In this document: positions 2,631 to 57,217 of the stretch, in pieces
Layout of the letters: every line of letters begins with the position of its first letter
Position numbering within the stretch: the first letter of the stretch is position 1
Origin: Candidatus Latescibacterota bacterium
GTDB taxonomy: Bacteria; Latescibacterota; UBA2968; UBA8231
Reading direction: 5' to 3'
NCBI GenBank assembly: GCA_965203175.1
Contig: OZ241867.1
Coordinates: 1,824,001-1,888,000 of the forward strand
DNA length: 64,000 bases
Notes under the pieces: generated by a model
The model's input: only the letters and a program-made list of their open reading frames with translations
Told to the model about the DNA's origin: nothing
The model's database searches: none
Program-made: the position numbers and the translations under genes

Positions 2631-3620
2631 GTGGAATATCGAAAATTGGGCACTGCGGATATCGAAGTATCGGCAATGGCGCTCGGCTGTTGGCCTTTCG
2701 CCGAGGGGACGGTCTGGGGCGAGCAGGATGAGGGTGAGTCGATTGCGACGGTGCACGCGGCGCTCGACGCGGGGATCAACTTCTTCGACACAGCGGAGGG
2801 CTATGAGGAGGGTCACTCCGAGCGCGTGCTCGGACGCGGTCTGGCCGGTCGGCGCCAGCAGGCGATCATCGCCAGCAAGGTAAGCCCGAATCACCTGACC
2901 TCGGAGGGCATCGCGGCCGCCTGCGAGCAGAGCTTAGAGAATTTGCAGACGGACTATATCGATCTCTACCAGATCCACTGGCCCAACCACGATATTCCAA
3001 TCGAGACATCTTGGCGCGCGTTAGAGGATCTGCTGGCCTCTGGAAAGGTGCGCGCCCTGGGGGTGGCGAACTTCGCCAGCAACGATCTGGCCGATCTGGT
3101 CGCGGTGGGTCAGCCAGCGGTGAATCAGTTGCCCTATAGTTTGCTGTGGCGAGCGATCGAATTCGAGGTCCTGGCGCGCTGCCGCGAGCGGGATATCGGG
3201 CTGATCTGTTACGCGCCGCTGGCACAGGGGCTGTTGACGGGAAGATACGCAACGGCGGACGAGGTGCCGGACGGGCTGGCGCGGACGCGGTGGTATGCGG
3301 GCAGTCGGCCGCTGGCCAAACACGGCGAGCCTGGCTGTGAAGAGGCCGTGTTTCACGCCATCGCGGGGATTCGCGATGTCAGCGAACGGATCGGCGCGTC
3401 GCTGGCGAGCGTGGCGCTGGCGTGGGTGCTCAAGCAGCGGGGGGTGACATCACTCTTGGTAGGGGCGCGAAATCTGGATGAACTCACACGCAACCTGCCG
3501 GTGCTGGCACTGAATTTGGACGCGGCGACAATGGCCGAACTGGAGCGGCTGACCGAGCCGGTTAAAGAAGCGATCGGGCGCAATCTGGATATGTGGTCTG
3601 CGGAGTCGCGAATGCGGTGA
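2631..3620 (+). CDS. Aldo/keto reductase
   Basis: GINFFDTAEGY, LQTDYIDLYQIHWP, GKVRALGVANF, YAPLAQGLLTG. Confidence 0.93.
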   Translation: MEYRKLGTADIEVSAMALGCWPFAEGTVWGEQDEGESIATVHAALDAGINFFDTAEGYEEGHSERVLGRGLAGRRQQAIIASKVSPNHLTSEGIAAACEQSLENLQTDYIDLYQIHWPNHDIPIETSWRALEDLLASGKVRALGVANFASNDLADLVAVGQPAVNQLPYSLLWRAIEFEVLARCRERDIGLICYAPLAQGLLTGRYATADEVPDGLARTRWYAGSRPLAKHGEPGCEEAVFHAIAGIRDVSERIGASLASVALAWVLKQRGVTSLLVGARNLDELTRNLPVLALNLDAATMAELERLTEPVKEAIGRNLDMWSAESRMR

Positions 3621-3673
3621 AGCGGGCGTCAGTATGCCAGCCCGATCAGACGCACGGCATTGTCCTCGCCGGT
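3606..3673 (+). repeat. 68-bp direct repeat, copy 1
   Basis: tcgcgaatgcggtgaagcgggcgtcagtatgccagcccgatcagacgcacggcattgtcctcgccggt matches 4965-5032 with one mismatch (3661 t vs 5020 c). Confidence 0.97.
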
Positions 3674-3683
3674 TGTTCACACT

Positions 3684-4856
3684 TCAGCCTGAGAATGGCG
3701 CGATTGCTTTACTGCGCAGATAATCGACGTTCATCTCAATTCCCAAGCCGGGACGGTTGGACAGATGTAGGCAGCCGTCTCTGACATCCAACGGATGGTC
3801 GATCAGCACATCATAAGCGTTGAGCTTGGCGCGACTGGTCTCTAATTTGTAGAAATTCGGGACTGTCATCATCGTATGCGCCCCAGCCAGCACGTTGATG
3901 GGACCGCTTGCATCGTGTGGCGAGATCGGCACGTAGTACGCCTCCGCCTGCGTCGCAATCTTCTTCAACTCTGAAATACCACCCGCCCACGTCACATCTG
4001 GCATGATATAGTCCGCGAGTTCATTTTCAAGGACTGGCACGAACTCATAGCGGGTCTGGAGCCGCTCACCGACACAGATTGGCACGCTGACGTTCTGTCT
4101 GACCTGCTTCAATGCGTGGTAGCTTTCAACGGGGACCGGCTCTTCAAACCATCCGATGTTGTAAGGTTCCAACCTTTTCGCGAGCCGAATCGCTGTTGCT
4201 ACATCAAACCGACCGTGACAGTCGATGAGAATTTGAATGTCAGGTCCGACCGCCTCTCGAATTGCAGCGATCACATTTGCGCCCTGTTCCTCTCCTGCGG
4301 CATCCATCTGCCCACTCAAATAGCCGTTGGCTTCTTCTGGATGGTGAGGGAACGGATCGGTTTTCAACGCGGTATGACCTGTTTCTGCAATCGCTTTGCA
4401 ATGCGCTGCCGTGCTCTCTGGATCTTTCTCACCCCCTGGATGTGTGTAAAGAGATATCGAGTCCCGAACGGGTCCCCCGCCAACCAGTTCATAGATTGGT
4501 AATCCCAACTGCTTACCGCGAATATCCCACAACGCGATATCAATAGCACTGACGATATTTGAGGTGGCACCTCGTGTCCCCATGTAGGTGAACGCTCGGA
4601 AAACCTTGTTCCATATCGTCTCGATGCGCGTTGCGTCGTCGCCTTCAATTAGACTGCTGGTTTGTTCAAGCATAGCACACACTGCTCTATTTGCGACCCG
4701 GCTGGTGCCGGTAATTTCGCCCCACCCTGTGATCCCTTCGTCTGTTGAGACTTGAACGAAGATATACTCTCGTTCTCTGTTGGGGCGGTCACCGGCGGTA
4801 TCTAGGTAAGGCGCTGGTGATTTAACGAGCCACGGTGTGATTCCAGTTATTTTCAT
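3684..4856 (-). CDS. Mandelate racemase/muconate lactonizing (enolase superfamily) dehydratase, DgoD-like
   Basis: SAIDIALWDIRGK, KTDP, LIDCHGRF, WFEEPV, VGERL, PHD; visibly more AT-rich codon usage than its neighbours. Confidence 0.9.
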   Translation of the reverse strand: MKITGITPWLVKSPAPYLDTAGDRPNREREYIFVQVSTDEGITGWGEITGTSRVANRAVCAMLEQTSSLIEGDDATRIETIWNKVFRAFTYMGTRGATSNIVSAIDIALWDIRGKQLGLPIYELVGGGPVRDSISLYTHPGGEKDPESTAAHCKAIAETGHTALKTDPFPHHPEEANGYLSGQMDAAGEEQGANVIAAIREAVGPDIQILIDCHGRFDVATAIRLAKRLEPYNIGWFEEPVPVESYHALKQVRQNVSVPICVGERLQTRYEFVPVLENELADYIMPDVTWAGGISELKKIATQAEAYYVPISPHDASGPINVLAGAHTMMTVPNFYKLETSRAKLNAYDVLIDHPLDVRDGCLHLSNRPGLGIEMNVDYLRSKAIAPFSG

Positions 4857-4964
4857 CGTTTAACCCTGTTTTCTAATGCCATTGGTTCATAAGAAGAAGC
4901 TACAAAGCCTCCGCGAATTAACGCGAATCTACGCAAAAAAAGAGAAAGACTAAAGATGGGCAAC

Positions 4965-5032
4965 TCGCGAATGCGGTGAAGCGGGCGTCAGTATGCCAGC
5001 CCGATCAGACGCACGGCATCGTCCTCGCCGGT
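4965..5032 (+). repeat. 68-bp direct repeat, copy 2
   Basis: Matches 3606-3673 and carries the true stop codon of CDS 4988-7351. Confidence 0.97.
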
Positions 5033-7351
5033 CTGAGCGCCCAGATCAATGCGGCAGAGGTAGATCCCCGGTGGCACGACCGCGCCCTGTAGATCAAATC
5101 CATTCCACAGATAAGACAGCAAACTGCCCGTCGATGACGGGCTCAGCCGCGCCACTTGGTGCCCGCTCAGGTCGAAGATCTCCACTTGCGGTGCGGACGC
5201 GGCGACCTTCAAGATGGCAAAGCGGATCGCGACCTGGTCGTTGATCCCGTCGCCATTGGGGGTGAAGACTAGTGGGTCTATCGCGAGGTCGTCGATGAGC
5301 CATCGGCTGCTAGTCAGTTCGGGCGAGAGCACGATATTGGCGCGACGGGTCATGGCCTCCACCGATTGCCACAGCCCCGGTCGCTCATTGGTGCCGAGGT
5401 CGAGGGCGAAGAGGGCGGCGTTTTGCAGGACGCGGGTAGTAAAGCTGACTTCGAGCGAGTCGGCGGCAATCACCTCTGGCAGGGCGATGAAGAGCGAGTC
5501 GCCCCGCGCTTCCACTCCTACGGGATCGATGGGTGCCGCTCCCGCGCTCACCTCGACGCCGGCCTCGAGATCGACCGGCCCGGGCAGGGTAAAGCGCAAG
5601 AGGTCGAAGCCGCTGTCTGCGGGCAGCGTGCGCGTCGCCAAGGCGTAGGTGAAGCGGGTGGCCTCGTTGGGGCGCACCTCGCGCGGCTCGATGCGTCCCA
5701 AGGCCTCCTGCACCAAAGCCTCTTCAAACTCGATCGCTAGCGAGTGGACCGTCGGTGCGAAATCGGGGTCGTCGGTGGCGAAGATCAGTTCCAATTGCAC
5801 AAAGCGGCGCGGACTTTCCGACTTGAAGGGATCACCCGAGGACTGGTACTCGCTGCTCCACGCACTCCAGTCTTCGCCCACCACCAAGGCGGTGTCGATG
5901 GGGCCTTTGAGAACCTTGGGAAGACTGTTGTATTTCTCCTCGGTGACCTCGTCCCCCTTCTTGTCGTAGAAGGTGTATTGCTCACTGAGCGCGTTGCCCG
6001 AGCGCGAGCGCAATTGGATGCGGGTGTGGGCGGGCAGCTCGGCGTCCCAGGAGAGTGCGTTGATGACCTTGGGGCGGCCGTCTGCAGAACCCAGATCGAT
6101 AAAGGCGGATCGCAGCACGACTTGGGCGGGATAGCCGGGTGAGAAGACCATGAACTCCCCCCATTTGGCCTGACCCCAGCCGCTGTCGGTGACGCCGTGC
6201 CAGAACAAATAGCGCATTTTGCGCGGTCTGAAGAGATAGCGGATATAGAACAGGCGGTCGGTGCCGGGGTTGAGGTGAGTGAGCAGTTCGGCGTAGTCGA
6301 AGGGCTCTGCTACCGGTAGGCCGCTGACTAGGGCGCGGGTGCCGTCCGAAAAGAGGATGGTGTGGCCGGGACCGGTGCCGCCGACGCCAAAGCCCAGGGT
6401 GCCCTCCTGCTGGCGCATCGAATAGATGAACATTTCGTCGACGAAAAACACCGCGCCCAAGTCGACTCCGAACCACACGCCGTTTTCCTTCCAACCCAGT
6501 TCGCCAACGCCTGAGGAAATGGAGTTGTTGGTGTTGAGATTAGCGTCGAACAGGTTGGCGGTGGCAGTGGCGCGAGCCCCGTCGGTGAAGGAGCCGCGCC
6601 GGTCGGTGCCGATGGCGATATTGTCCCCGATGCCGAAAACCTCGATTTCGGCGAGGGCCCCGTCCGCGCTCTGTTCCTCGGCCATGATACTGATGTACTG
6701 GATGAGCTGGTAGTGGTCGCGGCGATCCGGTTCTACTCGCAGGCCGGCGTCGATCACCAAGGTACTGTCGTTGCCGGGAAATCCGAGGGGTATGGCGATG
6801 GAGGTCGCCTCATTAGGTCGGGTGGTGCGATAGACCGAGCGGAAAAGAAAGACGTCTCGGGTGGCGACGATGCGCACACCAGTATTGACCAGCACGGTAA
6901 ACTGCCTGAGGGGACGGGCCCCTTCCCGGTTGGGAAAAATCAGGTGGATTTCGCGAGCGAGTACGGCGCGCCCTAGGTCGATGGTGATAAACCAGTCTTC
7001 GGGTGCCGCGCCGGGATCGGGCTGCCAGAAGGTCTCGGGATCGCCGTCGATGGCCAGCGCGGCCGTCTCCGGGCTGGAGCCCACTTCCCAGATGCCACCG
7101 AAAACCGAGTCGCCGCGCTCTTTGGTCTCGTGCGCGAATAGGTGAGCGTCCTGTACCGCGTTGATATCTTTGCGGAATTTGACCAGCTGTAACTGTCCCT
7201 CGGTCCCGACCTGTGTCAGGCCGAAGGGCTTTTCCCAGGTCGCCCATTCTGCGGCGCTATCGAAGACCAGTTGGTCGGCGCAGACCGGAACCGCGCACAG
7301 CAGTAAGGCGCAGATGGCGCAGATGGCAAGGTGCTTGCCCGACATAGCCAT
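4988..7351 (-). CDS. Large secreted protein with discoidin-like modules and C-terminal FlgD/gliding-motility-CTD-like domain
   Basis: Signal peptide; AIDGDPETFW..ITIDLG discoidin-type motif; C-terminal FTPNGDGIND...IFDLSG...WNGFD..G.VVPPGIYL. Confidence 0.75.
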   Translation of the reverse strand: MAMSGKHLAICAICALLLCAVPVCADQLVFDSAAEWATWEKPFGLTQVGTEGQLQLVKFRKDINAVQDAHLFAHETKERGDSVFGGIWEVGSSPETAALAIDGDPETFWQPDPGAAPEDWFITIDLGRAVLAREIHLIFPNREGARPLRQFTVLVNTGVRIVATRDVFLFRSVYRTTRPNEATSIAIPLGFPGNDSTLVIDAGLRVEPDRRDHYQLIQYISIMAEEQSADGALAEIEVFGIGDNIAIGTDRRGSFTDGARATATANLFDANLNTNNSISSGVGELGWKENGVWFGVDLGAVFFVDEMFIYSMRQQEGTLGFGVGGTGPGHTILFSDGTRALVSGLPVAEPFDYAELLTHLNPGTDRLFYIRYLFRPRKMRYLFWHGVTDSGWGQAKWGEFMVFSPGYPAQVVLRSAFIDLGSADGRPKVINALSWDAELPAHTRIQLRSRSGNALSEQYTFYDKKGDEVTEEKYNSLPKVLKGPIDTALVVGEDWSAWSSEYQSSGDPFKSESPRRFVQLELIFATDDPDFAPTVHSLAIEFEEALVQEALGRIEPREVRPNEATRFTYALATRTLPADSGFDLLRFTLPGPVDLEAGVEVSAGAAPIDPVGVEARGDSLFIALPEVIAADSLEVSFTTRVLQNAALFALDLGTNERPGLWQSVEAMTRRANIVLSPELTSSRWLIDDLAIDPLVFTPNGDGINDQVAIRFAILKVAASAPQVEIFDLSGHQVARLSPSSTGSLLSYLWNGFDLQGAVVPPGIYLCRIDLGAQTGEDDAVRLIGLAY

Positions 7352-15103: not shown

Positions 15104-15150
15104 AGTCAACTTTCTGTCAATGGACGATTCAAGCGCGACATTCACGACAT

Positions 15151-16971
15151 TCATTTGGATTCTAACCGCGCCGCTTTTTCCGCGTCCCACCACCAAGTGT
15201 CGGGAAAGCCCAGCCCATTGGGAGCGGGCTTTGGCATCCGCCCGAACTTGTTCCAGTAGGCCAAGCGATAGGAGCGGCTGTGCGAGTCGGGGATCACGTA
15301 GTGGTTCCAGAGCAAGATGCGGTCGAGGGCGTGGGTTATCGCGACTTGGGTTGGACGGTCGGGGGCAGCGATCTGGCGCTCGATCAGCTCGTCGATGACC
15401 GGATCGGCAATGCCGACGTAATTGCGGCTGCCCGCAGAGCGCGCCGCCGTACTCGACCAGAAGTTGCGCTGCTCATTGCCTGGGCTCAAGGTCTGGCGCC
15501 ACGAGGTAACGATGATGTCGAAATCGAAATCCTGGACGCGGTTTTGGTACTGGGCCGCGTCAACCGTGCGAATGGTCGCCTCAACGCCGAGGCGTTCTAG
15601 GTTTTGCACGAGGGGGCTGAGGACGCGCTCGTACGACGAGGACCCGAGCAAGAATTCAAAGCGCATGACCTCGCCGGTCTCAGCGTGAGTCAGCTTCCCA
15701 TCGACCACGGTCCAGCCAGCCTCGGTGAGCAATTTCTTCGCCGTGCGCAGGTTTTGGCGAAGCTGTCCTGAGCCGTTAGTAGCCGGCGGCGCGTAGGCAG
15801 TGGTAAACACCTCGTCCGGTATCCGCCCCCGGTACGCCTGCAAAATTTCCAACTCCTGTCCCATGGGAAGCCCCGACGACCCAAGGTCCGAGTTGCCCCA
15901 ATAGCTGTTGCTGCGAGTGAGAAGGCCATAGAACAGATTCTTATTAGTCCATTCAAAGTCGTACGCATAGGCGAGCGCTTGCCGCACCTTGGGATCTTTG
16001 AACTTGTCGCGCCGGGTGTTAAACGCAAAACCCGACATGCCGCGGATGAGTTGGTGCGGGATCTGCACCTTGATCATCCGCCCTTTGGCGATCGGCGTAA
16101 AGTCTTCATAGTCAGTGGCCCATTCCTTGGAATCGCTCAACAGGCGATAATCGTACTCCCCCGTCTTAAAGGCTTCGATGGCCACGGTCTGGTCGCGGTA
16201 GTACTCGTAGCGGATGCGGTCGAAGTTGTGGCGACCCTTGTGTACGGGCAGGTCGCGCGCCCAGTAGTCTGCGACGCGCTCGTAGGTAATCGAGCGGCCC
16301 GGCTCGAACTCGGCGATCTTGTACGGGCCGCTACCCAAAGGCGGCTCAAGCGTGGTGGCGGCGAATTCGCGTCCCTCCCAATAGTGCTTGGGCAATACGC
16401 GCAACTGGCCGATGATCAGTGGCATTTCGCGGTTGGTGCCCTCTTTGAACTCGAACTTCACCTGGCGTTCGTCGAGGGCGAAGACTGTGTCAACATCGGC
16501 GTAAAAAGTGCGAAAGAACGGGATGCCCTTGGTGGTGAGGATTTTGAAGCTGAAGATCACATCGGCCGCGGTTACGGGGACGCCATCGTGCCAGCGCGCT
16601 GCGGGATGGAGTTCGAAGATGATCCAAGAGCGATCCTCCGGCATCTGCATCTGCGCCGCGAGCTGGCCGTATTCGGTGAACGGCTCGTCCTTGGACTTGG
16701 TGCAGAGCCGGTTGTAGAGCATCAGCGAGCCGTAGGCGGCAACGCCCTTGAGAGTAAAGGGGTTGAGGTTGTCGTACGTGCCGATGGCGGCGAGGCGGAT
16801 TTCGCCGCCTTTGGGGGCGTCGGGATTGACGTAGTCGAAGTGGGTAAAATCAGGCCCGTACTTGGGGTCGCCGTAGAGCGTGAAGGCGTGGGCGCGGAGA
16901 ACGGTACTGTCCGCGGCATGGGCCACCGAGGCGAGGATAAAGCAGAAAACTAGTGAGCGCATAGTCTGCAT
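15151..16971 (-). CDS. yejA: Peptide ABC transporter substrate-binding protein, YejA-like (copy 1)
   Basis: Same motifs as 13283-15103; alternative start MRSLV at 16962. Confidence 0.88.
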   Translation of the reverse strand: MQTMRSLVFCFILASVAHAADSTVLRAHAFTLYGDPKYGPDFTHFDYVNPDAPKGGEIRLAAIGTYDNLNPFTLKGVAAYGSLMLYNRLCTKSKDEPFTEYGQLAAQMQMPEDRSWIIFELHPAARWHDGVPVTAADVIFSFKILTTKGIPFFRTFYADVDTVFALDERQVKFEFKEGTNREMPLIIGQLRVLPKHYWEGREFAATTLEPPLGSGPYKIAEFEPGRSITYERVADYWARDLPVHKGRHNFDRIRYEYYRDQTVAIEAFKTGEYDYRLLSDSKEWATDYEDFTPIAKGRMIKVQIPHQLIRGMSGFAFNTRRDKFKDPKVRQALAYAYDFEWTNKNLFYGLLTRSNSYWGNSDLGSSGLPMGQELEILQAYRGRIPDEVFTTAYAPPATNGSGQLRQNLRTAKKLLTEAGWTVVDGKLTHAETGEVMRFEFLLGSSSYERVLSPLVQNLERLGVEATIRTVDAAQYQNRVQDFDFDIIVTSWRQTLSPGNEQRNFWSSTAARSAGSRNYVGIADPVIDELIERQIAAPDRPTQVAITHALDRILLWNHYVIPDSHSRSYRLAYWNKFGRMPKPAPNGLGFPDTWWWDAEKAARLESK

Positions 16972-16996: not shown

Positions 16997-17031
16997 GATA
17001 AAACGGAAAATTAGTGCGTACATAGACTACA
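16997..17031 (+). repeat. Degenerate copy of the yejA 5' end (16936-16970)
   Basis: gataaaacggaaaattagtgcgtacatagactaca vs gataaagcagaaaactagtgagcgcatagtctgca, 27/35 identical, ungapped. Confidence 0.7.
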
Positions 17032-30308: not shown

Positions 30309-31336
30309 ACGCGATCGATTGGGCCGAGCGGGGTCTGTTGCCGGATGCCCTTATCCGCTGGGGCATCCGCCGCCTCAATCGCGGACGCCTGCGGCAAGAG
30401 CGAGGTGTCGACTGCGAGGCCGAGCAGGCGGCCAAATCTCGCTTCATCGCCTCTATGGACCAGGCACCCATCGCCCTGCATACGCAGAGTGCCAACGAGC
30501 AGCACTACGAGGTGCCGCCCGAGTTTTTCCAACTGGTCCTGGGCCACCATCTCAAGTACAGCGGCTGTTATTTCCCTGCGCAGACGGCCAGTCTGGACCA
30601 AGCCGAAGCGGCCATGCTGGAACTGACCTGTCAGCACGCCGATCTGCAAGACGGCCAGGAGGTGCTGGAATTGGGCTGCGGCTGGGGGTCGCTGACCTTG
30701 TGGATGGCGCGGCATTATCCCGGCAGCCGCATCACTGCGGTGTCCAATTCAACGTTGCAGCGCAACTTTATCGAAGAGCGCTGCAAAGCCTTGAGGCTGG
30801 ACAACGTCGAGGTGATCACCTCGGACATGAACCAATTCGCGGCACCGGGACGCTACGACCGGGTGGTATCGGTGGAGATGTTTGAGCACATGCGCAATTA
30901 CCGCGAGTTAATGCGGCGCATCGCTGGCTGGCTCAAACCGGATGGCTCGCTATTCATCCACATCTTCGTCCATCGCCTCTACGCATACACCTTTGCCGCC
31001 GAAGGTGAAGAAAACTGGATGGGGCGTTATTTTTTTACCGGCGGCATCATGCCCTCCGACGATCTGCTGCACTACTTCCAAGACGACCTAGTCCTAGAGG
31101 CGCAATGGCGGGTCGATGGCCGGCACTACGCCCGCACGGCCGAGCATTGGCTGGCCAATCTCGACGCCCGGCGCTCAGAGGCCCTCGCCATTTTGGAGCA
31201 CCAGTACGGCACCGCCACAAAGCAGCGATGGTTACAGCGCTGGCGTATTTTCTTTATGGCCTGCGCCGAATTGTGGGGCTACAATGGCGGGCAGGAGTGG
31301 TGGGTGTCGCATTATCGTTTTAAACGGAGAGGGTAG
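30305..31336 (+). CDS. Cfa-like SAM-dependent methyltransferase
   Basis: [55 protein letters not shown]. Confidence 0.9.
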
Positions 31337-31365: not shown

Positions 31366-31401
31366 AGTGGTGCGTGTCGTATCAGCATTTTAAACGGAGA
31401 G
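31366..31401 (+). repeat. Degenerate copy of the methyltransferase 3' end (31296-31331)
   Basis: agtggtgcgtgtcgtatcagcattttaaacggagag vs agtggtgggtgtcgcattatcgttttaaacggagag, 31/36 identical. Confidence 0.88.
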
Positions 31402-38388: not shown

Positions 38389-40097
38389 CTACCACAATAC
38401 AACAAAGAGTAATATGCTCGCCACTACTAAATAAACTCCGATCCACAGCCCAGGGCGCAAGTACCAGCGCGGACCGTCCACTCCTACGGCAAAGGGGTAC
38501 TCCGGTCGGATCGGAGCTTCCGCTAGCGTCTTTTGCAGCCAAGTGCCCTCTAAGGCGGCGAGCCGCTGGCCCATGTGCTGCCGCAGGGAAGCGGGGTCTT
38601 CGCGGCGGGCGTACACCAAGCCGCGCAATTCTTCGTCGCGCACTGGGCCGCGCCGCCAGTCGATCACCTTTGAGGCGATGAGCATACTCAGCGCGGGTAG
38701 CACCAAGTTCCACAAGTAAGTCCACCAAGTATTCTGGTACCACACCGGCAGCGCCCAATCGTTGAAATCGGCCAAAATCGCCGACATCCCATAGCCCAAC
38801 CCCACCAGCAAACCGACGATCCCCGTTTGGCGATGCACCCGCGTGAAAACGCCCATCAACATCACCGTCATCAGCGGCACGGCAATGGCCCCAGCCAGCC
38901 GCAGGTAGAACAGCAACATGCCCTTTTCGCCCAAAAAAGGCACGTACACAAAGCCCAGCGCCAAAATGATCGGCACCGATATCCGGCCCACCTTGGTGTA
39001 GTGCGCGTCCGTGCCGTTTTTGACGATGAAGCGCGCGTACACGTCGCGCACAAAAAGCGAGGAAATGCCAATACCGATAGAATCAAAAGTCGAATACCCA
39101 GCCGCTACCAAGCCAGCGACCACCAAGCCGACCAATCCGCCGGCAGGTATGCCTCAATCATCAGCGGATAGGCCCTGTCAACGATCTCCAAACCGGGAAA
39201 TTGCGCCCGCGCCATCGGCCCCAAACTGACGTTGAAAAACAGACAGATCGCCGTGGCGATGCTGGCCACCAACACCGCCATCTTGAAGTCCCACTCCGAG
39301 CGCGCGCCCAAGAAGCGAATGGCCTCGTACTGGTTGATAATCGCATACGTAGTCAACACCACCAAGAAGCCGAATATCACCACCAATGCGGGCACGCCAT
39401 CGGGCGAATAGCCCCCTACCTTCAGCAGCGCATCCGCCAGCCCTTCTTCGGCCGCCTCCAGCCGCGTCGCCACCCCCTCCCAACCGCCTAGACCCGAATA
39501 CGCGAATCCCCACAAGACGAACGAAGCCACGATCATCGTCGTGCTTTGCAGGGCATCAGTCAGGACACCGGCCCGCAGACCACCGCGCACGATGTAGAGC
39601 ACCGAGCTGATGGCCACGCCCACCACCACAAACCAACACGTCGTCGCCTCGATGTCGGCGACGATGTGCAACACCAAGTACATGGAAAAGAAAATGTTGC
39701 CCAGCACGTTGGTCCGCGACTGGACATTGATCAAGACCGCCAGCAGCCGCACGGATGGCCCGAAGCGGAACTCCAGCCATTCGGCGTTGGTAAAAACCCC
39801 CGAGCGGTACATCGGCACGATGACGAAGAAGCTGAGCACAGTCCAACCCACGGCAATGCCCAGCCACCACTGCGCCAACTGCGACAGCCCGAGGTTGTAG
39901 GACCCGCCGACAATGCCGACGTAATCGCCGCTATCAACGGCCGTGCCAAACGCCGACAGCCCGATCACCCACCAGGGCATGGACTTGGCCGCGAGGTACC
40001 AATCGAAGCTCTCGCCCTTGTTGCGGAAGGCAATCAGGCTATAGGCGACGATGCCGCCGTTGAGCACTACCACGACGGCCCAGTCTAAGGCGGTCAT
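38389..40097 (-). pseudogene. Sodium:solute symporter (SSS) split by a 1-bp frameshift near 39138
   Basis: ORFs 39105-40097 and 38389-39135 are consecutive halves; adding one G restores ...YLPAGLVGLVVAGLVAA... Confidence 0.85.
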
Positions 40098-49495: not shown

Positions 49496-50041
49496 TTACA
49501 CTTTCATCGTCGCTAGAGCATTCTCGTAAGCCCCGTACGTCGCATCGTCGAAGAGGACGAAGCGCACCTCATAGAGACCGTCGTGCGCTTCGAGGAACTG
49601 CTTTACCACATTGAGCGCGACAACCGCGGCTTGCGCGACTGGATAACCATACACGCCGGTGCTAATGGATGGAAATGCAATCGTCTTGATGTTGTGCTCC
49701 ACTGCGAGTCGTAAGCTTTCCCGATAGCAGCTAGCAAGAAGTTCGGGTTCACCAGCGTCTCCGCCCCGCCAGATCGGCCCCACTGTGTGGATGACGCACT
49801 TCGCGGGAAGATTGCCCCCCGTCGTGATGACGGCTTGACCCGTGGGACAACCGCCCTGCTTGGCGCGGATTGCGCTGCATTCCGCCATGATGGCTGGTCC
49901 CCCAGCGCGGTGAATGGCACCATCGACGCCACCACCGCCCATGAGCCCCTCGTTAGCAGCGTTGGCAATCGCATCGACTCGTTCCCTTGTAATATCTCCG
50001 CGCACAAGTGCGAGAGACGTTTGGTTAATTTTTGTCGTCAT
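49496..50041 (-). CDS. Macro domain O-acetyl-ADP-ribose deacetylase (YmdB-like)
   Basis: GDIT, DAIANAAN, GGGGVDGAIHRAGG, VIHTVGP, FPSISTGVYGYP. Confidence 0.93.
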   Translation of the reverse strand: MTTKINQTSLALVRGDITRERVDAIANAANEGLMGGGGVDGAIHRAGGPAIMAECSAIRAKQGGCPTGQAVITTGGNLPAKCVIHTVGPIWRGGDAGEPELLASCYRESLRLAVEHNIKTIAFPSISTGVYGYPVAQAAVVALNVVKQFLEAHDGLYEVRFVLFDDATYGAYENALATMKV

Positions 50042-51072
50042 GAAGAATTCTCCTCACCATCGCTTGATCTTGGTCGGCTAGCACGATTTCCTGCTCCCCG
50101 TTCCTTCGCAGACTCCCGTTGATACGCATCGGCCCAGTGCGTTGCGGCGCATTCGCGGCCTTCGTTGCCAAGCGCACTGGCGATGGCCTCGCGCACCCCT
50201 TGGGGCTGAATGTGCGGAAAGGTCTGCAGGGCTGCGTCGTCGCGGACGACCGTCGGGTGGCGAATGCTGTCGATCAGTTTGCGTCCAATCCGGGCGTACA
50301 AGGGCGTCACCAGACCGAGCCAGAGGCTAGAAAGGCGCGGCGTCAACAACGGCACGGGAATCATCAGCCGCCTGAGCCGGCGCTGCCGCGCGTACTCCCG
50401 CATCAAGTCGCCGTAAGAAACCGAATCGGGACCGCCGATTTCAAAAATCGCATGGTCATCGGTTTTTAAGTCGAGTGCGGCCGAGAGATATTGCAGCAGA
50501 TCGTCAATCGCTATTGGCTGTGCAGTGACGTTCACCCAACGCGGAGTGATCATCACGGGAAGCCGCTCCACCAGCGAGCGAATCATCTCAAACGACAAAC
50601 TGCCAGAACCAATGACAATAGAGGCGCGAAACTCGACGACCTGCACTCCCGATGCGCGCAGGACCTCGGCGACCTCCTGCCGGCTTCTAAGATGCGGGGA
50701 CAGCTCCCCACTCGTTTCGCCGAGACCGCCGAGATAGATAATCCGCCCGACGCCCGCTCTCTGCGCCTCTGCACCAAAGTTGTGCGCGGCCCGGCGGTCC
50801 TGTTCCTCGAAATCGCCCTTTGAACCCATGGAGTGGACCATGTAGTAGGCAATCTCGACGCCGTCCATCGTCCCTGTGAGGCTTTCGCGGTCGAGGACGT
50901 TGCCGCTGATTACTTCCGTCGTTGGCCCAACGCAAGATTGGAGTGCCTCGGGACGCCGAGTTACACAGCGCACCCGATGCCCGGCATTTTCCAACACGTG
51001 CAACAGCCGCCCGCCGATATAGCCGGTCGCGCCCGTCAAGAGAATGGGCGAAGTCGCTGACGGTGTAGGCAC
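50038..51072 (-). CDS. YbjT-like atypical SDR NAD(P)-binding protein, C-terminally truncated
   Basis: LLTGATGYIGGRL, YYMVHSM, SPHLRSR, RASIVIGSGS.SFEM, QPIAI; low-complexity tail after WADA where DUF2867 often follows. Confidence 0.8.
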   Translation of the reverse strand: MPTPSATSPILLTGATGYIGGRLLHVLENAGHRVRCVTRRPEALQSCVGPTTEVISGNVLDRESLTGTMDGVEIAYYMVHSMGSKGDFEEQDRRAAHNFGAEAQRAGVGRIIYLGGLGETSGELSPHLRSRQEVAEVLRASGVQVVEFRASIVIGSGSLSFEMIRSLVERLPVMITPRWVNVTAQPIAIDDLLQYLSAALDLKTDDHAIFEIGGPDSVSYGDLMREYARQRRLRRLMIPVPLLTPRLSSLWLGLVTPLYARIGRKLIDSIRHPTVVRDDAALQTFPHIQPQGVREAIASALGNEGRECAATHWADAYQRESAKERGAGNRASRPRSSDGEENSS

Positions 51073-51087: not shown

Positions 51088-51145
51088 ATTTGACTGTGTA
51101 TCGTCATTTTTCACAACAATTTGACGACAACATATACATTTTTCA
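51088..51145 (+). repeat. About 58-bp direct repeat, copy 1 (promoter/operator-like)
   Basis: Matches 56630-56688 with 2 substitutions and 1 indel; contains the TCGTCA-N15-TGACGA inverted repeat. Confidence 0.95.
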
Positions 51146-51181
51146 TTCATCCTACAGTCAGGTCTCGTCCATCCACCACAG

Positions 51182-51364
51182 CTACGGTACGCTATTCTTC
51201 TCTTCGGCATGGGGCACTTCCTCGCTGCGAATGAAACCATTACAAAGGGCACAATGAATGACCCGCAGGGCTAGTTCCTTCCCTTTGGACGTGCGGCGCG
51301 GGGGCTCAAGGACAATGCGCGTGTTGGTGGCGCGGCGGCAGTGGGGGCAATAGGTAGTGGACAT
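51182..51364 (-). CDS. Small zinc-ribbon protein (60 aa)
   Basis: MSTTYCPHC...HCALCNG, two CxxC pairs; GGAGGA RBS. Confidence 0.7.
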   Translation of the reverse strand: MSTTYCPHCRRATNTRIVLEPPRRTSKGKELALRVIHCALCNGFIRSEEVPHAEEKNSVP

Positions 51365-51395: not shown

Positions 51396-53372
51396 TTACG
51401 TGTTGATAATTCGCCGACGCCCACCTTTCAGCCGGTCTAGTACCTCCAGACATCGCGGCCGACGATGGTTTTCCTCTCGCAAGGAAGCCAAATACACTTC
51501 CCATTCCTGCTTGCGACCAGCCCGCGTGAGCGCATTTTTCATTTTTCGCAAATAGGGAGTTGCTGCTTCGTATCCACTCGTACTGACTCGGGCGATATTG
51601 CTCTCCGCAGTTTCCTTCCATATAGCTATCGCCCGACCCGGGTAGGCCGACTTGATGGCCTCAGCCACCTCGGTGGCATCGACAAGGAAGTCAGACAGTC
51701 CCAATCCACCCTTTTTGCGGCCAGCATAGTCGTACCACTTGAGCACCTCGTCTGGCTGCTTTTCGGCAATAGCCAACTGAGTTAGTATCCCGGTCATGGG
51801 TGCCTCTATTGCCTCGATATTGGGCACCTCGACTTCAGGAGGCGGCAGGGGCCAAGCTACCTTCGGATCGCTCTTGCGTTTTCGACCAACACCGGGTCGT
51901 CGGCCAGTTTCCAGATAGTGCCGCGCCCAAGCCTCGACGCCTTGGCCGACGCGCACCTTGCGAGCGGCTTTGCACAAATCCTGAAAACCGGCTAGATAAG
52001 GCTCGGCAAAAAACTCCTCGGCCTGAAGGGCCAACCCAGCGAGCGGATTGCCACTGCGCCAATTAATCGTCTGTAGCTGCTTGTGCATGGCCGTTTCAAT
52101 GCCCGGATAGATGGAGGCGACCGCCTCAATCCCCTGATGACACCAGCGCCGGGCCTCTTCCCAGCGGCGTTTGGCCATCAAGTAATCCACCAAGCGTTCA
52201 TAGCTCAAAGTAATGGGTGCTTCGCGCTCGCACAGCGGGATGATCTCGTCTTGGCGGCCGGCCTTTTCCAAGGCGAGAATCAGCCAGTCGGTCAGTCGGT
52301 CCCGCTCGTAGTGCAGTTCCTCCTTAGTGTCCTTGGAGGTCTCGATACGCTGCGCTAGCCGATCACTCACCGCGGACCAATCGCTTTTGGCGTAGCGTCT
52401 TTTCCACAGTTGATCCAAGCCAGCGTCGCACAGTCCGTATTCGTCGGCCAGTGCCATATTTAAGGCCCATTCTACTTGGTCTGCTGGCGACAGAGACGAT
52501 TTTTCCAAGACTTGAAAAAGAACATCGAGGCAGTCGGAGAACGCCGCTTCGAATTCGCCTTCGCTATCGTACTGTAGTGCTTGGTGGGCTGTGGCCAATA
52601 GCTCCGGCCCCAGTCGCACGGCCGCGTCGGCCTGTCCGGCTTGCGCCAGCCCTTTGAGCGCCGCCTTGAGGCGATCCGTGTTAAGCGCAGGGGAGTTGCC
52701 GTATTCGTCCCATACCGGCTCTTCTAAGGTACTGATCTCGCGGCGGATCGTCTGGAAAATTTTGTCAGTCTGCCCCGAGGTTAAGTCTCGGCGGTCGGCG
52801 ATCAACTGGCGCACCGCGTCATGCGCGTCCGCGAGTTCCATCACCAGCGCTACGAGTTCGGCTTTGGTCTGCTCTTGGAGGTACGGACGCAGAGAAGCTG
52901 TCTTGAATTTTGACCGCCCGGAACGCACCTTGACGTTTTCTTCCTCCTCTTCCTCGGCGAATTCCTCGTATTCGTCGCCTTCATCCCCTATCGCTTCTAG
53001 TTTCAACAAGCGCGGATCGTCCTCGTCAATTTCGCCAATAGCACTATCAGTCTTGAGGCGTTCCAAGTATTCCAGTACCACCGCCACCGCGTGCTTGCAG
53101 GTATCCCAATAGGGACAGGTGCAGGCGGATTCCAAGCCGTTCCTCTCGGTAAGACGCACTCGGGTGGCATAGCGCCGCGTTCCTCTCACCCAAGCTGCCA
53201 ACGTCCCGCCCTCAGTGCGTCCCAAGTTTTCAACCGCTCCGTTTCTCTGATAAGGGCGTCCTCGTCCGACTATGACGTTGCCCGCCCATTCCTCTAGGTC
53301 TTCCCAAGTGAGTTTCGAGAATGGGTCGGAAGACTTTTGCTTCTTAGTGGTTTTCTTTTTTTGCCGCGCCAT
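51396..53372 (-). CDS. SWIM zinc-finger protein with long helical C-terminus
   Basis: RGRPYQ..G.V, VRGTRRY, CTCPYWDTCKHAVAV (CxC..CxH). Confidence 0.85.
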   Translation of the reverse strand: MARQKKKTTKKQKSSDPFSKLTWEDLEEWAGNVIVGRGRPYQRNGAVENLGRTEGGTLAAWVRGTRRYATRVRLTERNGLESACTCPYWDTCKHAVAVVLEYLERLKTDSAIGEIDEDDPRLLKLEAIGDEGDEYEEFAEEEEEENVKVRSGRSKFKTASLRPYLQEQTKAELVALVMELADAHDAVRQLIADRRDLTSGQTDKIFQTIRREISTLEEPVWDEYGNSPALNTDRLKAALKGLAQAGQADAAVRLGPELLATAHQALQYDSEGEFEAAFSDCLDVLFQVLEKSSLSPADQVEWALNMALADEYGLCDAGLDQLWKRRYAKSDWSAVSDRLAQRIETSKDTKEELHYERDRLTDWLILALEKAGRQDEIIPLCEREAPITLSYERLVDYLMAKRRWEEARRWCHQGIEAVASIYPGIETAMHKQLQTINWRSGNPLAGLALQAEEFFAEPYLAGFQDLCKAARKVRVGQGVEAWARHYLETGRRPGVGRKRKSDPKVAWPLPPPEVEVPNIEAIEAPMTGILTQLAIAEKQPDEVLKWYDYAGRKKGGLGLSDFLVDATEVAEAIKSAYPGRAIAIWKETAESNIARVSTSGYEAATPYLRKMKNALTRAGRKQEWEVYLASLREENHRRPRCLEVLDRLKGGRRRIINT

Positions 53373-53488
53373 TTTCGTTCATTCCCCTACTCTTGGATAG
53401 CGATGTTGGGGCTTCTTATATCAATTGTCCTAATAAGGGCCGTATGCGACATTCCTACAACGGGCGTTCAGGGAAGGTATGGCGAGAG

Positions 53489-55456
53489 ATGGAGACGAGA
53501 AACGAGAAAATTAGGGCAAAGACAGCCGCCGTCCGTGCGTGGCTAATGGTCCTTCTGCCAGCCCTCGTGGCTCCCGCCCAGGGCCTGCAGGTGAAGGGCT
53601 TCACCAGCGCGGCGGTTCAGGAGGCCGTGTCCAGAGCCTCCGCCGGGGACACACTGGTGTTTCCAAGAGGAGAGTACCTGTTCACCGAGACGGTCGTCAT
53701 CGACAGGAGCATCACCCTTCTCGGCGCGGCCAAACTCGTGGACGTGGGCGAGGTCGAGCCGGGAGAGCCGAATGACCCGCCGTACTGGGACTCCTCTCCC
53801 TCCGTGTGCTACACCGAAGACAGCGACCTCGACCTGTTCCACGTGGCGAGCGACGCCGCGACCTTCAAAAGCCTCAAGCTCGTGGGGGCCATTACCCACG
53901 AGGCGGGAACCGGAGACGGCATCGCCGTTGTCGGGCACGACCAGCTCGAAATCGACAACTGCGAAATCACCCGCTTCCGCAAGGGCATCGACTTCATGAA
54001 CTCCCACAGGGGCGTAGTCACCGGAAGCTACCTGCACGAGAACTATCGCAATGGCTTCGGCTATGGGATCAGCATTACGGGGCCGACCATGGCCACCGGC
54101 GGTTCCGAGGTTGCCATATCGCGCAACGAATTCACCTTCAACCGCCATTCCATTGCCTCTAACAGCCCGCAGACCCGGTTCACCGTGGAGAACAACTACT
54201 TCCACGACAACGATCTAGAGCAGTGGCAGGCCTGCGTCGATACCCATCCCCAGGGCGGGTACGCGATTCGAGCCGTGGTCCGCGACAATATCTTCGAGCG
54301 CACCCGGCCCATGGCCTTCAAGAGCGGCAGCCTAGAGATCACTGGGAACTACTTCGATCCCGGTTGCGGAGACTACTCGGTCGGCGGGTACTCCCGGATG
54401 CTGGACTTCGGCGAACCAACGCACAACGGCAATCACATCGCCGAAGCCGTGCTCCACAACATCTACATAGGAGATAACGTGAACGCCACGGATCCGTGGC
54501 GCCGACTGCTGTGGGTGGACGACTACGACTACGAAGGGGAGACGAAATTCGTGGCCTACAACCTGTTCGTCGACGGCCGACTCTTCAAGTACAACAGCGC
54601 CCTGAGTTCTGCGCCCCGCCATCCCTTCCCCGACTCGAGCCCCAGTCCTTTCGTCGGACACATGTATGTCACCCTGCCCGGCGCAGAGGAGCGAGTCGAT
54701 ACCCTCGAAACCAACACTTGGTACGACCTGTACGCGCTGGCCGTCGACCCTCAGGGAGCGCATGACATCGCCGAGATCGGCGTCCAGCTCATCAGCTCCG
54801 GGCACCTCGCCACCGGCGATCGCATGGCTCTGGAGGAATTCTCAGTCAGTGACAGCTATTTCATTCGCGGTGCCAGCGAGTCCGTGTATGCGAGGGAGGA
54901 GGAGGGTTCATCGGATTGGACGGACCTCACGGGGATCGAGGGCCTGTACGTCGATGGCACAGAGACGGCCTGGGGAACCTCCGGCCGCGACCGCATTCGC
55001 TTCACAGCGCGATTTAGGGTGTCGGATCAGGCCCTCGGGGGAAAGTGGCGCATGTTCGGGTATGCCCGCGATCAGGACGGCAATCTGCCTGTCGCACCCT
55101 GGCACGAGTTGCTGGAGGGCTGGCCCATAGAGGTCAATAACCACGTGGCGACATCGATAACCAGCACTGCCTCGGACCAAGTGGCACCCCAGAAGACGAG
55201 GCTCGATAGCATCTACCCAAATCCCTTCAATCCAGTCACCACGATCCACTTCACGCTCTCGGAGCCGCAGCACGTGACGCTATCGGTCTACACTCTCACG
55301 GGGCAGCTAATGGAGACGCTGTTCAGCGAGACCAGGAGCCGAGGGAGTCACTCTGCGACGTGGGATGCCTCGGACCGGGCTTCGGGCGTCTACCTGTGCA
55401 GGCTGACCGGGGCTGACCAGCTCTCGCAGGTGCAGAAGATGGTCCTGATAAAATGA
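53489..55456 (+). CDS. Secreted right-handed beta-helix (pectin-lyase fold) protein with C-terminal sorting domain
   Basis: VQEAV..A..GDTLVFPRGEY, repeated IDNCEI/ISRNEF/VENNYF/VRDNIF strands; C-terminal YPNPFNP...GVYL...KMVLIK. Confidence 0.75.
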   Translation: METRNEKIRAKTAAVRAWLMVLLPALVAPAQGLQVKGFTSAAVQEAVSRASAGDTLVFPRGEYLFTETVVIDRSITLLGAAKLVDVGEVEPGEPNDPPYWDSSPSVCYTEDSDLDLFHVASDAATFKSLKLVGAITHEAGTGDGIAVVGHDQLEIDNCEITRFRKGIDFMNSHRGVVTGSYLHENYRNGFGYGISITGPTMATGGSEVAISRNEFTFNRHSIASNSPQTRFTVENNYFHDNDLEQWQACVDTHPQGGYAIRAVVRDNIFERTRPMAFKSGSLEITGNYFDPGCGDYSVGGYSRMLDFGEPTHNGNHIAEAVLHNIYIGDNVNATDPWRRLLWVDDYDYEGETKFVAYNLFVDGRLFKYNSALSSAPRHPFPDSSPSPFVGHMYVTLPGAEERVDTLETNTWYDLYALAVDPQGAHDIAEIGVQLISSGHLATGDRMALEEFSVSDSYFIRGASESVYAREEEGSSDWTDLTGIEGLYVDGTETAWGTSGRDRIRFTARFRVSDQALGGKWRMFGYARDQDGNLPVAPWHELLEGWPIEVNNHVATSITSTASDQVAPQKTRLDSIYPNPFNPVTTIHFTLSEPQHVTLSVYTLTGQLMETLFSETRSRGSHSATWDASDRASGVYLCRLTGADQLSQVQKMVLIK

Positions 55457-55479: not shown

Positions 55480-56631
55480 TTATGGCCACAGAGCATCGGC
55501 GGCCAACAGGTTGGAAAATTGCGAAAATGGCAGAATCTCGATGCCATCTGCCGTTTGTAACTCAGGCCCTTCGGGATAGACGACAATGCGTCGGCACAAA
55601 CCTTCTAAGTCGGCTAGCACTCTCAACCCTTTGCACCAAGATTCGGCAAATGTACTGCCGGACTTGACCTCAATGGCGACGAATTCTCCCCCGCGTTTGA
55701 GCAGGAAATCGACCTCAGTTTGGGTTTGCGCAACAGTTGCCCAATAGAAGCATTCGTCACACAGATTGCGATAGTCTGTGTACGACCGAATCAACTGTGC
55801 AATCAGCCCTTCAAATAGGACACCGCGTTCCTCTGGTGTTGGAGGCGTCGTGACCTTTTTCATGGCTCGCACAATACCGGGGTCACACCAATACCATTTG
55901 GGCAATTTGCGTTCGCGCACGCGCAATCGGGTCTCATAGGCAGGAAGCTGAAAGCAGAGGAGCGTTTCCTCTAGGATCTCCAGATAACCCGTCACCGTCG
56001 TGCGGGCAACTTGAGCTTCTCTGGCAATGTTGGTCACGTTCAAGGTCTGACCGTGAAAGAGCGCCGCAACGGGCAGAAAGCGCGCGAATCCCGGCAGGTT
56101 GCGCACTAGGGCCTCGGCTTGAATCTCTTCTTTGAGATACATCTGCGTACAGGCAATGAGCGTCTCTGCTCTGTCCTGTGAATCCCATACAATGGGCAGC
56201 AAACCGTGTTGCAAAGCGTCGTCGAGTGCGAATTGTTCTCCCAATTCTTCGGGAATAAAGGGGTGCATCGCGCGATACAGGGCGCGCCCTGCGAGCAGGT
56301 TGACACCTGCCTGTTTGAGCTTTCTCGCGCTCGACCCGCACAAAACAAAGCGCAGCCCCCTTTCTTCTATAAAACGGTGTACTTCATTGAGCAGCGCCGG
56401 CAGTCTCTGCATTTCGTCTAAAACCACCCAGCGGTCGCCGGGCACAGCCCGCAGTTCGGCGGCTAGGAGCCCTGGATTTGCAAGCAGGCGCTGGTACGTA
56501 TCCTCGGCGAGCAAATTGATGACGTGCGCATCGGGAAAAGCGATCCGCAAATAGGTGCTTTTTCCAACGCCGCGCGGTCCTAAGAGAAAGAAGCTTTTTT
56601 TAGGGGCTTCAAATATACGTGGAATCGTCAT
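55480..56631 (-). CDS. AAA+ ATPase with DUF4143-type C-terminal domain
   Basis: GPRGVGKST, LDEMQR, LCGSSARKL, LLAGRA, PKWYWCDPG, EVDFLL..AIEVK. Confidence 0.88.
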   Translation of the reverse strand: MTIPRIFEAPKKSFFLLGPRGVGKSTYLRIAFPDAHVINLLAEDTYQRLLANPGLLAAELRAVPGDRWVVLDEMQRLPALLNEVHRFIEERGLRFVLCGSSARKLKQAGVNLLAGRALYRAMHPFIPEELGEQFALDDALQHGLLPIVWDSQDRAETLIACTQMYLKEEIQAEALVRNLPGFARFLPVAALFHGQTLNVTNIAREAQVARTTVTGYLEILEETLLCFQLPAYETRLRVRERKLPKWYWCDPGIVRAMKKVTTPPTPEERGVLFEGLIAQLIRSYTDYRNLCDECFYWATVAQTQTEVDFLLKRGGEFVAIEVKSGSTFAESWCKGLRVLADLEGLCRRIVVYPEGPELQTADGIEILPFSQFSNLLAADALWP

Positions 56632-56688
56632 TTGACTATGTTATCGTCATTTTTCACAACAATTTGACGACAACATATACACTTTTCA
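56630..56688 (+). repeat. About 58-bp direct repeat, copy 2, abutting the ATPase start codon
   Basis: Matches 51088-51145. Confidence 0.95.
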
Positions 56689-56741
56689 CAGACTGTCAAG
56701 TTATGGATGAACGACAACGGAGCTAGCACGGCTCGGTTTCT

Positions 56742-57125
56742 TTATTTGGCATCGATCTCTTCCAGCCGCGAGAGGCGCTGATCCATATTGTCGAGGAAGG
56801 GCTTGGGATCGTCGATGAACATCCGGGGAGAGTTCAACCGACGGCTCTGGATTTGGTGATGACGCTCTAAAGTCCTGAGACTCATCTCCAATTCTCGGAG
56901 GGCCCGATGCATCTCAAAGTGGAGTCGTCTGGGACGGCGTACCCGCAGGGCCGGCTGACCGGCGCGCTTGTAGAGCTGGCGCAGTCGGTCGGCTAGTTGT
57001 TCCAGCCGTTCGCGATTCTTTTCTTCGATCCCTCCGCAATACAGGGCTATGAATATGGCTAAAGAGAAGGCTATGAATATGGCTAAAAAGGATGAGAAAT
57101 ACCAGCTAAAATAGATTGGTTCCAT
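56742..57125 (-). CDS. Hypothetical protein with N-terminal TM helix and coiled coil
   Basis: AGGAGG RBS; TM segment built from a 24-bp-period duplication (ggctatgaatatggctaaa at 57045 and 57069). Confidence 0.65.
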   Translation of the reverse strand: MEPIYFSWYFSSFLAIFIAFSLAIFIALYCGGIEEKNRERLEQLADRLRQLYKRAGQPALRVRRPRRLHFEMHRALRELEMSLRTLERHHQIQSRRLNSPRMFIDDPKPFLDNMDQRLSRLEEIDAK

Positions 57126-57139
57126 AACAACCTCCTAGG

Positions 57140-57217
57140 GTCAAGTCTCGTCCATCCACCGCACTATTGTACCCTATCCTTCTCTCCATTGTAAAGAGCA
57201 CAGTGGAGGATCCGGCA
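57140..57217 (-). pseudogene. Degenerate, internally deleted copy of the Zn-ribbon gene 3' end plus its downstream flank
   Basis: Reads CRILHCALYNG-EKDRVQ* vs LRVIHCALCNG(FIRSEEVPHAE)EKNSVP*; flank gtcaagtctcgtccatccacc vs gtcaggtctcgtccatccacc at 51157. Confidence 0.85.

Follow-up and report, generated by a model that had tools for sequence, protein, structure and literature searches.

Direct repeats at the borders of chromosomal segments are known from several processes. Transposition of insertion sequences (IS) duplicates the target directly, usually over 2-14 bp. Integron cassettes are single promoter-bearing genes lying between repeats, and integrase-mediated islands, which target the 3' end of a gene, bring a surrogate end with them. 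Gene order can also change by tandem duplication followed by random loss, a model known from animal mitochondrial genomes. The displacement of old gene ends and homology-facilitated illegitimate recombination (HFIR) are reportedly dealt with by Jackson and coworkers in 2009 and in the primary HFIR papers of 2002-2003. Passages of Kirchberger et al. (2017; PMC5361080) propose HFIR, with sequential or C-terminal displacement of the former gene ends, for type VI secretion effector and rhs loci. For Escherichia coli, Staphylococcus aureus and Streptococcus pyogenes, passages of Touzain et al. (2010; PMC2884548) report direct repeats on both sides of 10-18% of the variable segments, attribute many of the small ones to illegitimate or homology-assisted recombination, and read the repeats, 66-94% of which are shorter than 30 bp, as deletion substrates. 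Here we describe four pairs of longer direct repeats that overlap gene ends or promoter regions in a window of 64,000 nucleotides (bases 1824001-1888000) of a Candidatus Latescibacterota bacterium, whose closed, single-contig genome of 6.58 Mb (G000) is metagenome-derived, and we follow the same pattern through the rest of the genome. The sequencing runs that contain DNA of this genome are labelled as sponge or marine metagenomes.

The first-pass annotation of this DNA had taken the four pairs as traces of a transposase-free system that inserts gene cassettes at gene boundaries. Our data show that the footprint is real; it was probably made by known processes, and a dedicated cassette system is not supported. 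It is likely, with a probability of about 60%, that general recombination, in a gene-dense genome whose genes turn over quickly, left the repeats behind as scars, by more than one route and by no single dedicated system.

All four pairs were confirmed at their coordinates. Counted without gaps, pair 1 (3606/4965) is identical at 67 of 68 positions, pair 3 (31296/31366) at 31 of 36 and pair 4 (16936/16997) at 27 of 35, and a repeat search returned pair 1 as a 68-nt direct repeat of 99% identity. Pair 2 (51088-51145 and 56630-56688) fails the ungapped count only because of a single 1-nt indel, its identity being 94.9% over 59 columns. As a control for chance, matches of at least 31/36 or at least 27/35 were counted at short offsets (40-120 nt) and, for comparison, at distant ones, a design that preserves composition and codon structure. 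Throughout the genome the near offsets gave 182 and 315 matches, respectively, against 1 and 5 at about 20 kb and none of either at about 100 kb; within the window there were 1 and 3 at near offsets and none at four control offsets. This excess rules out a chance origin and shows that all four pairs are real repeats. As the first-pass annotation had also stated, the pairs are unrelated to each other, since neither repeat-family grouping nor self-BLAST links any two of them (pair 1 forms a two-copy family of its own), and the window has no mobility gene: none of its 51 scanned open reading frames (ORFs) matches a transposase or integrase family.

The same signature recurs genome-wide. A self-BLAST filtered for repeats of 30-160 nt, with at least 90% identity and 0.25-30 kb apart, returned 66 repeats, 64 of them direct. 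After exclusion of repeats lying on a longer paralogous diagonal and of multi-copy families, 37 isolated pairs remained, 35 direct and 2 inverted, whose lengths (32-141 nt) differ from pair to pair and follow no ruler. In 26 of the 35 direct pairs at least one copy lies on a called gene terminus, as compared with 6.5 +/- 2.3 (maximum 15 in 1000 trials) under random placement, a null that disregards the tolerance of repeats mainly outside genes; the terminus counts are approximate because the rough codon-usage gene caller missed atypical genes, for example that at 1643-2515. The GC content between the copies is below that of the flanks in 21 of the 35 pairs, by at least 0.03 in 14. The cargo ORFs include defence, toxin-antitoxin and restriction genes as well as MR/MLE, PhyH and sulfatase members of large families of this genome, and about six pairs have IS copies within them.

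Pair 1 gives the clearest view of how such a junction is built. Its copies R1 and R2, separated by 1291 nt, each carry the ends of two convergent, abutting genes (Table 1), an aldo/keto reductase gene (A) and a gene for a secreted protein with a type IX secretion system (T9SS) sorting tail (T), and enclose an MR/MLE gene (M); a WelO5-like gene (W, 1643-2515) lies next to A. GC content is about 0.48-0.55 between the copies, as opposed to about 0.58-0.69 in the flanks. The orphan gene end would have been retained because both convergent genes need their ends. Neither cargo border carries a terminal inverted repeat, the sole inverted repeat in 3560-5080 being internal (4309/4556). In the distant relatives G016 and G024, A occupies the syntenic place and M exists only as a 70% identical paralogue on another contig; thus, the A-T adjacency is the older state and M came later.

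Among 10 related species fetched for this locus, G001 and G023 have the order W-A-R-T with a single copy of the repeat and no high-identity M anywhere. G011 and G002 retain both copies, R1 being 57 nt followed by a differing 12-nt tail, and have lost A in part or almost wholly. In the other six (G012, G003, G022, G013, G010 and G021) M is present, R1 is absent and A is absent or almost so, which brings the relatives with A partly or wholly deleted to 8 of 10. In G012, G003 and G022, W is joined directly to M, in G013 the W spacer is joined to M, and in G010 and G021 about 40-70 nt of the interior of A precede M. The left junction has at least five forms. In contrast, the right junction (...gggcaac/R2) is common to G000, G011, G002, G012, G010, G021 and G003; G013 has a variant (...aacaac/R2) with a 5.9-kb insert upstream, and G022 has M without R2. 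Short-read contigs of runs X1 and X16 bridge the R1/cargo junction, and the G012-type joint is also present in contigs of run X3. A contig of run X3 links W immediately to R2, a single additional base lying between them, and lacks the reductase and MR/MLE genes (window 2519-4964), an allele found in 0 of the 10 relatives.

The M gene is 97.8-98.3% identical among the 9 genomes that carry it, always at this single locus, while the flanks are 89-95% identical. The mean pairwise difference at third codon positions in the 9 genomes is 0.032 for M, 0.109 for T1, 0.116 for T2 and 0.174 for W, a divergence 3-5 times lower in M than in its neighbours, and the W tree conflicts with the T1 tree. The low divergence of M and the conflicting trees point to recombination between species at the pair-1 locus, and indicate that DNA probably moves between species there. 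The same contrast is seen in a second MR/MLE cargo (L045:2312-3556, genome 5963087-5964331), which like window 3684-4856 is about 98% identical across species with flanks of 90-95%; the two look like genes that underwent gene-specific sweeps across species. The L045 pair is not a flanking duplication, because the inserted segment itself contains the second repeat copy.

Further repeat pairs elsewhere in the G000 genome (L021, L024, L026, L028, L045, L046 and the aspS locus) were compared with relatives in the same way, and, with pair 1 included, empty, exactly one-copy alleles were found at 7 of the 9 loci checked. For the 101-nt repeat at the aspS 3' end, G013 and G019 have the exact one-copy site. 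Where the cargo meets the aspS stop, G000, G006, G001, G023 and G011 have a common junction, with a differing far side, and G010 and G021 hold another cargo and a 50-nt repeat. At L028 an 80-nt repeat spans both ends of two abutting convergent genes around a cargo of 290 nt with a 70-codon ORF. This site is exactly empty in G012, G013 and G001, and the filled genomes (G000, G010 and G011) share one right junction, with 15 nt of filler, and have three left junctions. The other copy of the L028 cargo is in G013, 1.2 Mb away and without a flanking repeat. The 134-nt repeat of L024, also on two convergent gene ends, is empty in 2 of 5 relatives (G012 and G011), and its 7-kb cargo cluster is found about 4 kb from the site in G012 and at other places in G013 and G001. 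L026 (46-nt repeat) is empty in G012, where cargo pieces stand on both sides. L021 (63 nt) is exactly empty in 5 of 5 relatives and L046 (about 112 nt) in 4 of 5, and their cargo was found in none of the 5 relatives searched. In L046, 12 of 112 sites distinguish R1 from R2, and for 3-4 of them the two states recur in different relatives; likewise, the R1 variant of aspS is shared with G019 and the R2 variant with G001 and G023. An orphan copy of different descent from the cargo and its anchor copy could account for these alternative alleles, as could later homologous exchange; L021 and pair 1 are uninformative in this respect.

At pair 1, aspS and L028, one junction is common, the other is variable and the orphan end stands in its old context. 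Such a structure could be produced by additive insertion beside a conserved anchor gene, a route that would apply to pair 1, the aspS 3' end, L028, L021 and L046. The incoming DNA would consist of cargo linked to a copy of the end of the anchor gene; homologous recombination would take place within the anchor, the other end would be joined illegitimately inside the resident copy of the gene end, and the resident end would remain as an orphan direct repeat. Alternatively, a single crossover of a circle with short homology would give an identical product. The repeats themselves, their polymorphism, the pattern of the junctions and the lack of recombinases were observed directly; the enzymology, presumably RecA together with illegitimate joining, and which way each event ran are what we infer. 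Since only insertions that duplicate both ends spare abutting or overlapping convergent genes, selection would enrich the duplicating form, which would explain why the scars lie on gene ends. Later recombination between the copies would remove the cargo and give one-copy alleles, or else microhomology deletions would remove the orphan together with the neighbouring gene.

Pair 1 thus fits one-sided homologous plus illegitimate recombination of the HFIR kind. As far as the consulted passages on type VI secretion and rhs loci describe it, the likeness lies in one homologous anchor and one illegitimate, variable junction, in an old end displaced as an orphan, in the lack of a mobility gene and in the reuse of the slot in relatives. 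Here, by contrast, the anchors are ordinary metabolic or housekeeping genes, the ends concerned are 3' as well as 5', the orphan measures only 32-141 nt and three cases span the ends of two convergent genes; HFIR is invoked by analogy. The variable segments in the passages of Touzain et al. are likewise small, strain-variable and free of mobile-element signatures, whereas the repeats described here are 32-141 nt long and lie on gene termini.

Pair 2 tells another story. Its repeat stands directly upstream of two minus-strand genes, an NmrA-like gene (N) and an AAA_14/DUF4143 ATPase gene (P). A more decayed repeat accompanies each copy (U1 and U2), and the similarity of U1 and U2 identifies R1-U1 as R2-g127-U2 minus the ORF g127 (g). 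In the 15 relatives examined, the parts occur in several orders. G010, G022, G013 and G021 have N-P-R-g-U-f-S-B-rest with each part single (S and B, the genes of the S-B block; f, the flank of S), so that the S-B block lies to the right of g127 in these four. G000 has N-R-U-f-S-B-P-R-g-U-rest, G012 has N-P-R-x-S-B-R-g-rest, G001, G002 and G011 have S-B-(P-R)-g-U-f-rest, and G007 retains two g-U-f stretches. A single tandem duplication of [P R g U f S B], with differing losses afterwards, would account for all the observed orders, and the joint of B and P in G000 (55454/55456), also found in G001, is the end-to-start joint expected of it. Judged by gene order, pair 2 is in all probability the leftover of a tandem segmental duplication that was then lost differently in each species, and not, as first thought, an insertion with target duplication. 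In this second route, duplication of a multi-gene block and lineage-specific loss of copies would reorder genes and leave remnants of promoter regions. As in the model known from mitochondria, the losses are complementary (G000, G001 and G012) and short non-coding remnants mark the junctions; here the setting is a bacterial chromosome, the block measures 7 kb and the remnants are promoter regions, which may persist because each has come to serve a gene.

Two similar halves of about 30 nt, AATTTGAC ... CATTTTTCA, make up the pair-2 repeat, an arrangement that suggests a putative two-site element, operator or promoter, upstream of both the NmrA-like gene and the DUF4143 ATPase gene. A scan for sigma-70-type promoters gave one consensus-level match partly over R2 and none over R1, on which we base no claim.

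Pairs 3 and 4, each compared over 13 aligned rows, are of a third kind. Pair 4 is complete, with both of its copies, in 12 of 13 rows, and its unit of about 30 nt changes in number in the manner of slippage, with head-to-tail units (2 copies in G022 and G003, 3 in G011). Both copies of pair 3 are also present in 12 of 13 rows, among them relatives as distant as about 76-80% identity; in G004 the second copy is partly missing, and no gain in copy number was seen among the 13 rows. No cargo stands between the copies of either pair in any relative compared. These pairs had been regarded as scars of deleted cargo; a clean deletion between copies leaves one copy and not two, so that they are not deletion scars. 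From their distribution they are most probably old tandem duplications of a gene 5' or 3' end, conserved across the genus. Slippage would be the third route, making tandem duplications of 61-70 nt at gene boundaries.

With three routes, the proposal of a single process behind all four pairs does not hold, and no dedicated machinery was found: the cargo ends share nothing, the repeats keep to no common length and M occupies one locus in 9 genomes. The closed genome has 4 tyrosine recombinases and none of the serine type, 1 ComEC homologue and no Ku. Inspection of the cargo ends, by eye for the 35 pairs and by repeat search for pair 1, showed neither a common motif nor terminal inverted repeats. 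The first-pass annotation was right in setting the classical systems aside. Target-site duplications of IS share with these repeats the direct duplication of the target; here there is no transposase in the window and no terminal inverted repeat, and the duplications are longer and variable in length. Integron cassettes resemble the cargo in being single genes between repeats, but a common attC-like palindrome is absent, the repeats fold no better than shuffles (z from -0.6 to -1.2) and the window has no integrase. Integrase islands are alike in that a direct repeat of a gene 3' end flanks foreign cargo and leaves the target gene intact. However, 34 of the 35 pairs have no integrase in or beside them, one junction varies and the targets are many and unrelated. 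Among 229 cargo and flank ORFs scanned for the other 32 pairs, a single integrase was found, outside its own pair (genome 3380004/3386235).

Several observations weigh against reading the repeats as scars of general recombination. No donor genome was found that has the cargo/anchor junction without a history of duplication, so that the first origin of each duplication is one that we infer, and as the cargo of L021 and L046 is missing from the relatives searched, an HFIR donor is hypothetical for them. The low divergence of M ends at the coding region, the upstream 108 nt being 92-96% identical, which fits the sweep of an allele among genomes that already held M; the variable left junctions may thus be later deletions rather than independent acquisitions. 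Three independent left-side deletions end no more than about 10 nt from the M stop, and microhomology explains only part of this. Moreover, no published duplication made by HFIR was found in the literature searched, which did not include the primary HFIR papers, the genome has no Ku for the joining step, and 35 pairs may be more than generic processes yield in one genome.

Tandem duplication and random loss might be extended from pair 2, which it fits well, to all pairs including pair 1, the orphan ends being vestiges of gene copies that have since disappeared. In G012 the L024 and L026 cargo blocks lie a few kb away across the flank gene, which would agree with this, as would a cobW-like gene copy (4256736-4256912) cut down to its first 92 and last 93 nt. 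At pair 1, however, the model needs the order W-M-A-T, found in 0 of 10 relatives, and M is absent from the locus in G001, G023 and the outgroups. The distance of the second L028 cargo copy, the fact that all 5 relatives lack the cargos of L021 and L046, and the sharing of R1 and R2 alleles of L046 and aspS with different relatives also speak against it, and as an account of all pairs it seems unlikely.

It is quite doubtful that cassettes are excised as circles between their flanking repeats, transferred and reinserted at one-copy sites, a trans-acting and sequence-independent activity having made the first long target duplication of variable length. The preponderance of direct over inverted pairs (35 against 2), the exact one-copy alleles at 7 of 9 loci, the lack of mobility genes in the cargo of most pairs and the near identity of M and of the other MR/MLE cargo across species would all be expected of such a system. 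On the other hand, lengths of 32-141 nt show no ruler and the cargo ends no common motif or terminal inverted repeat, M is never elsewhere in its 9 carrier genomes, the second L028 cargo copy has no flanking repeat, and pairs 2, 3 and 4 have other origins. No joint of an R1 x R2 deletion or of a circle was found in contigs of four runs, which is weak evidence as contigs drop rare forms. A form of this idea in which gene blocks of this Latescibacterota genus, free of mobility genes, rely on RecA only is just as improbable: insertion independent of sequence, for example by replication template switching at abutting convergent ends, would duplicate 30-140 nt of target and keep the neighbours whole, and the duplication would then serve as the site of excision and reintegration, with spread between species at the same slot. 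If this were true, the tandem duplications of pairs 3 and 4 might represent vacant landing pads instead of scars.

Still less probable is that the repeats are attL and attR of small or decayed integrative elements with site-specific recombinases and a surrogate gene end, even though aspS has the geometry of 3'-end integration (intact gene, cargo, orphan 3' end) and the pair 3380004/3386235 adjoins an integrase gene. There are 35 different repeat sequences for 4 tyrosine and no serine recombinases, the one integrase in 229 ORFs lies outside its own pair, none stands beside the conserved junction in relatives at the 9 loci checked, the cargo is as small as 290 nt, and one junction varies among relatives at pair 1, L028 and aspS where att junctions would be fixed. 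Finally, the stitching in tandem of two strain alleles, conceivable in a metagenome-derived single contig, can practically be dismissed, since pair 1 is two-copy in G011 and G002, each with its own later deletions, L028 is two-copy in G010 and contigs of two runs bridge R1/M.

Some of the repeats that passed the self-BLAST filter are not insertion footprints. Those at 4514428 and 5620474 are a conserved GTPase motif inside genes and a sulfatase motif, and 4248999 together with 4250281 is one decayed gene copy. The repeat at 5955257 is CRISPR-like (clustered regularly interspaced short palindromic repeats): at this locus (L044) two exact 33-nt copies, 2.1 kb apart (5955257-5955289 and 5957365-5957397), are accompanied by a 204-aa fragment of a Cas3 HD domain and by a HepT/MNT pair. 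The copies resemble type I-E repeats, and the whole looks like a decayed CRISPR-Cas locus. At L036 the shortened cobW-like sequence mentioned above fuses the two ends of gene 4249024-4250370, 7.7 kb downstream of it, and is a duplicated gene copy shortened by internal deletion. L021 holds an IS of about 940 nt (L021:2325-3262, genome 396502-397439; also at 1812073 and 3388051) with terminal inverted repeats and a 297-aa ORF, presumably of the IS5-like type, of which there are 3 copies in G000, 6 close ones in G012 and more than 25 in G001.

The window itself has further features. Two tandem paralogues of a family-5 solute-binding protein (13283-15196 and 15151-16971) share about 70% DNA identity, and two TonB-dependent receptor paralogues (21173-23338 and 31405-33645), 10.2 kb apart and about 74.5% identical, are each followed by a different gene set. 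An SSF sodium:solute symporter is encoded as two overlapping ORFs on the minus strand (38389-39135 and 39105-40097), each covering half of the family profile, and may be a frameshifted or split gene. A family scan of the window ORFs also found T9SS sorting tails on several proteins.

Table 1. Repeat copies of the four pairs and the genes adjoining them, in window coordinates.
Feature	Position	Strand	Description
Reductase gene (A)	2631..3620	+	aldo/keto reductase; convergent with 4988-7351
Pair 1, copy R1	3606..3673		last 15 nt of reductase gene, 8-nt spacer, orphan last 45 nt of T9SS-tailed gene
Pair 1, cargo	3674..4964	-	MR/MLE (enolase-superfamily) gene 3684-4856 with 108 nt upstream and 10 nt downstream
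Pair 1, copy R2	4965..5032		orphan last 15 nt of reductase gene and true 3' end of gene 4988-7351
T9SS-tailed gene (T)	4988..7351	-	secreted protein with T9SS C-terminal sorting domain; conserved anchor gene of pair 1
Pair 4, copy 1	16936..16970		5' end of solute-binding protein gene 15151-16971 (-)
Pair 4, copy 2	16997..17031		intergenic
Pair 3, copy 1	31296..31331		3' end of CMAS-type methyltransferase gene 30305-31336
Pair 3, copy 2	31366..31401		directly upstream of TonB-dependent receptor gene 31405-33645
Pair 2, copy R1	51088..51145		16 nt upstream of the start of NmrA-like gene N, 50038-51072 (-)
U1	51150..51203		more decayed second repeat adjoining R1, about 81% identical to 57133-57185
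S-B block	51396..55456		SWIM-finger gene 51396-53372 (-) and beta-helix T9SS gene 53393-55456 (+)
ATPase gene (P)	55480..56631	-	AAA_14/DUF4143 ATPase; start abuts R2
Pair 2, copy R2	56630..56688		upstream region of P
g127	56742..57125	-	127-aa ORF, no Pfam family; between R2 and U2, absent between R1 and U1
U2	57133..57185		partner of U1

The flexible genes of uncultured symbionts are usually credited to mobile elements, and here dozens of gains, reorderings and losses are seen in a single closed genome without a mobility gene. Tightly packed convergent genes can still take insertions, and these leave a footprint that can be read, in which an orphan gene end marks one border and a conserved junction the opposite one. 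Should such footprints prove general, sequence alone would be enough to detect recent gains of genes, and the direction they took, in genomes assembled from metagenomes, and the share of illegitimate and one-sided homologous recombination in gene flux would become measurable.

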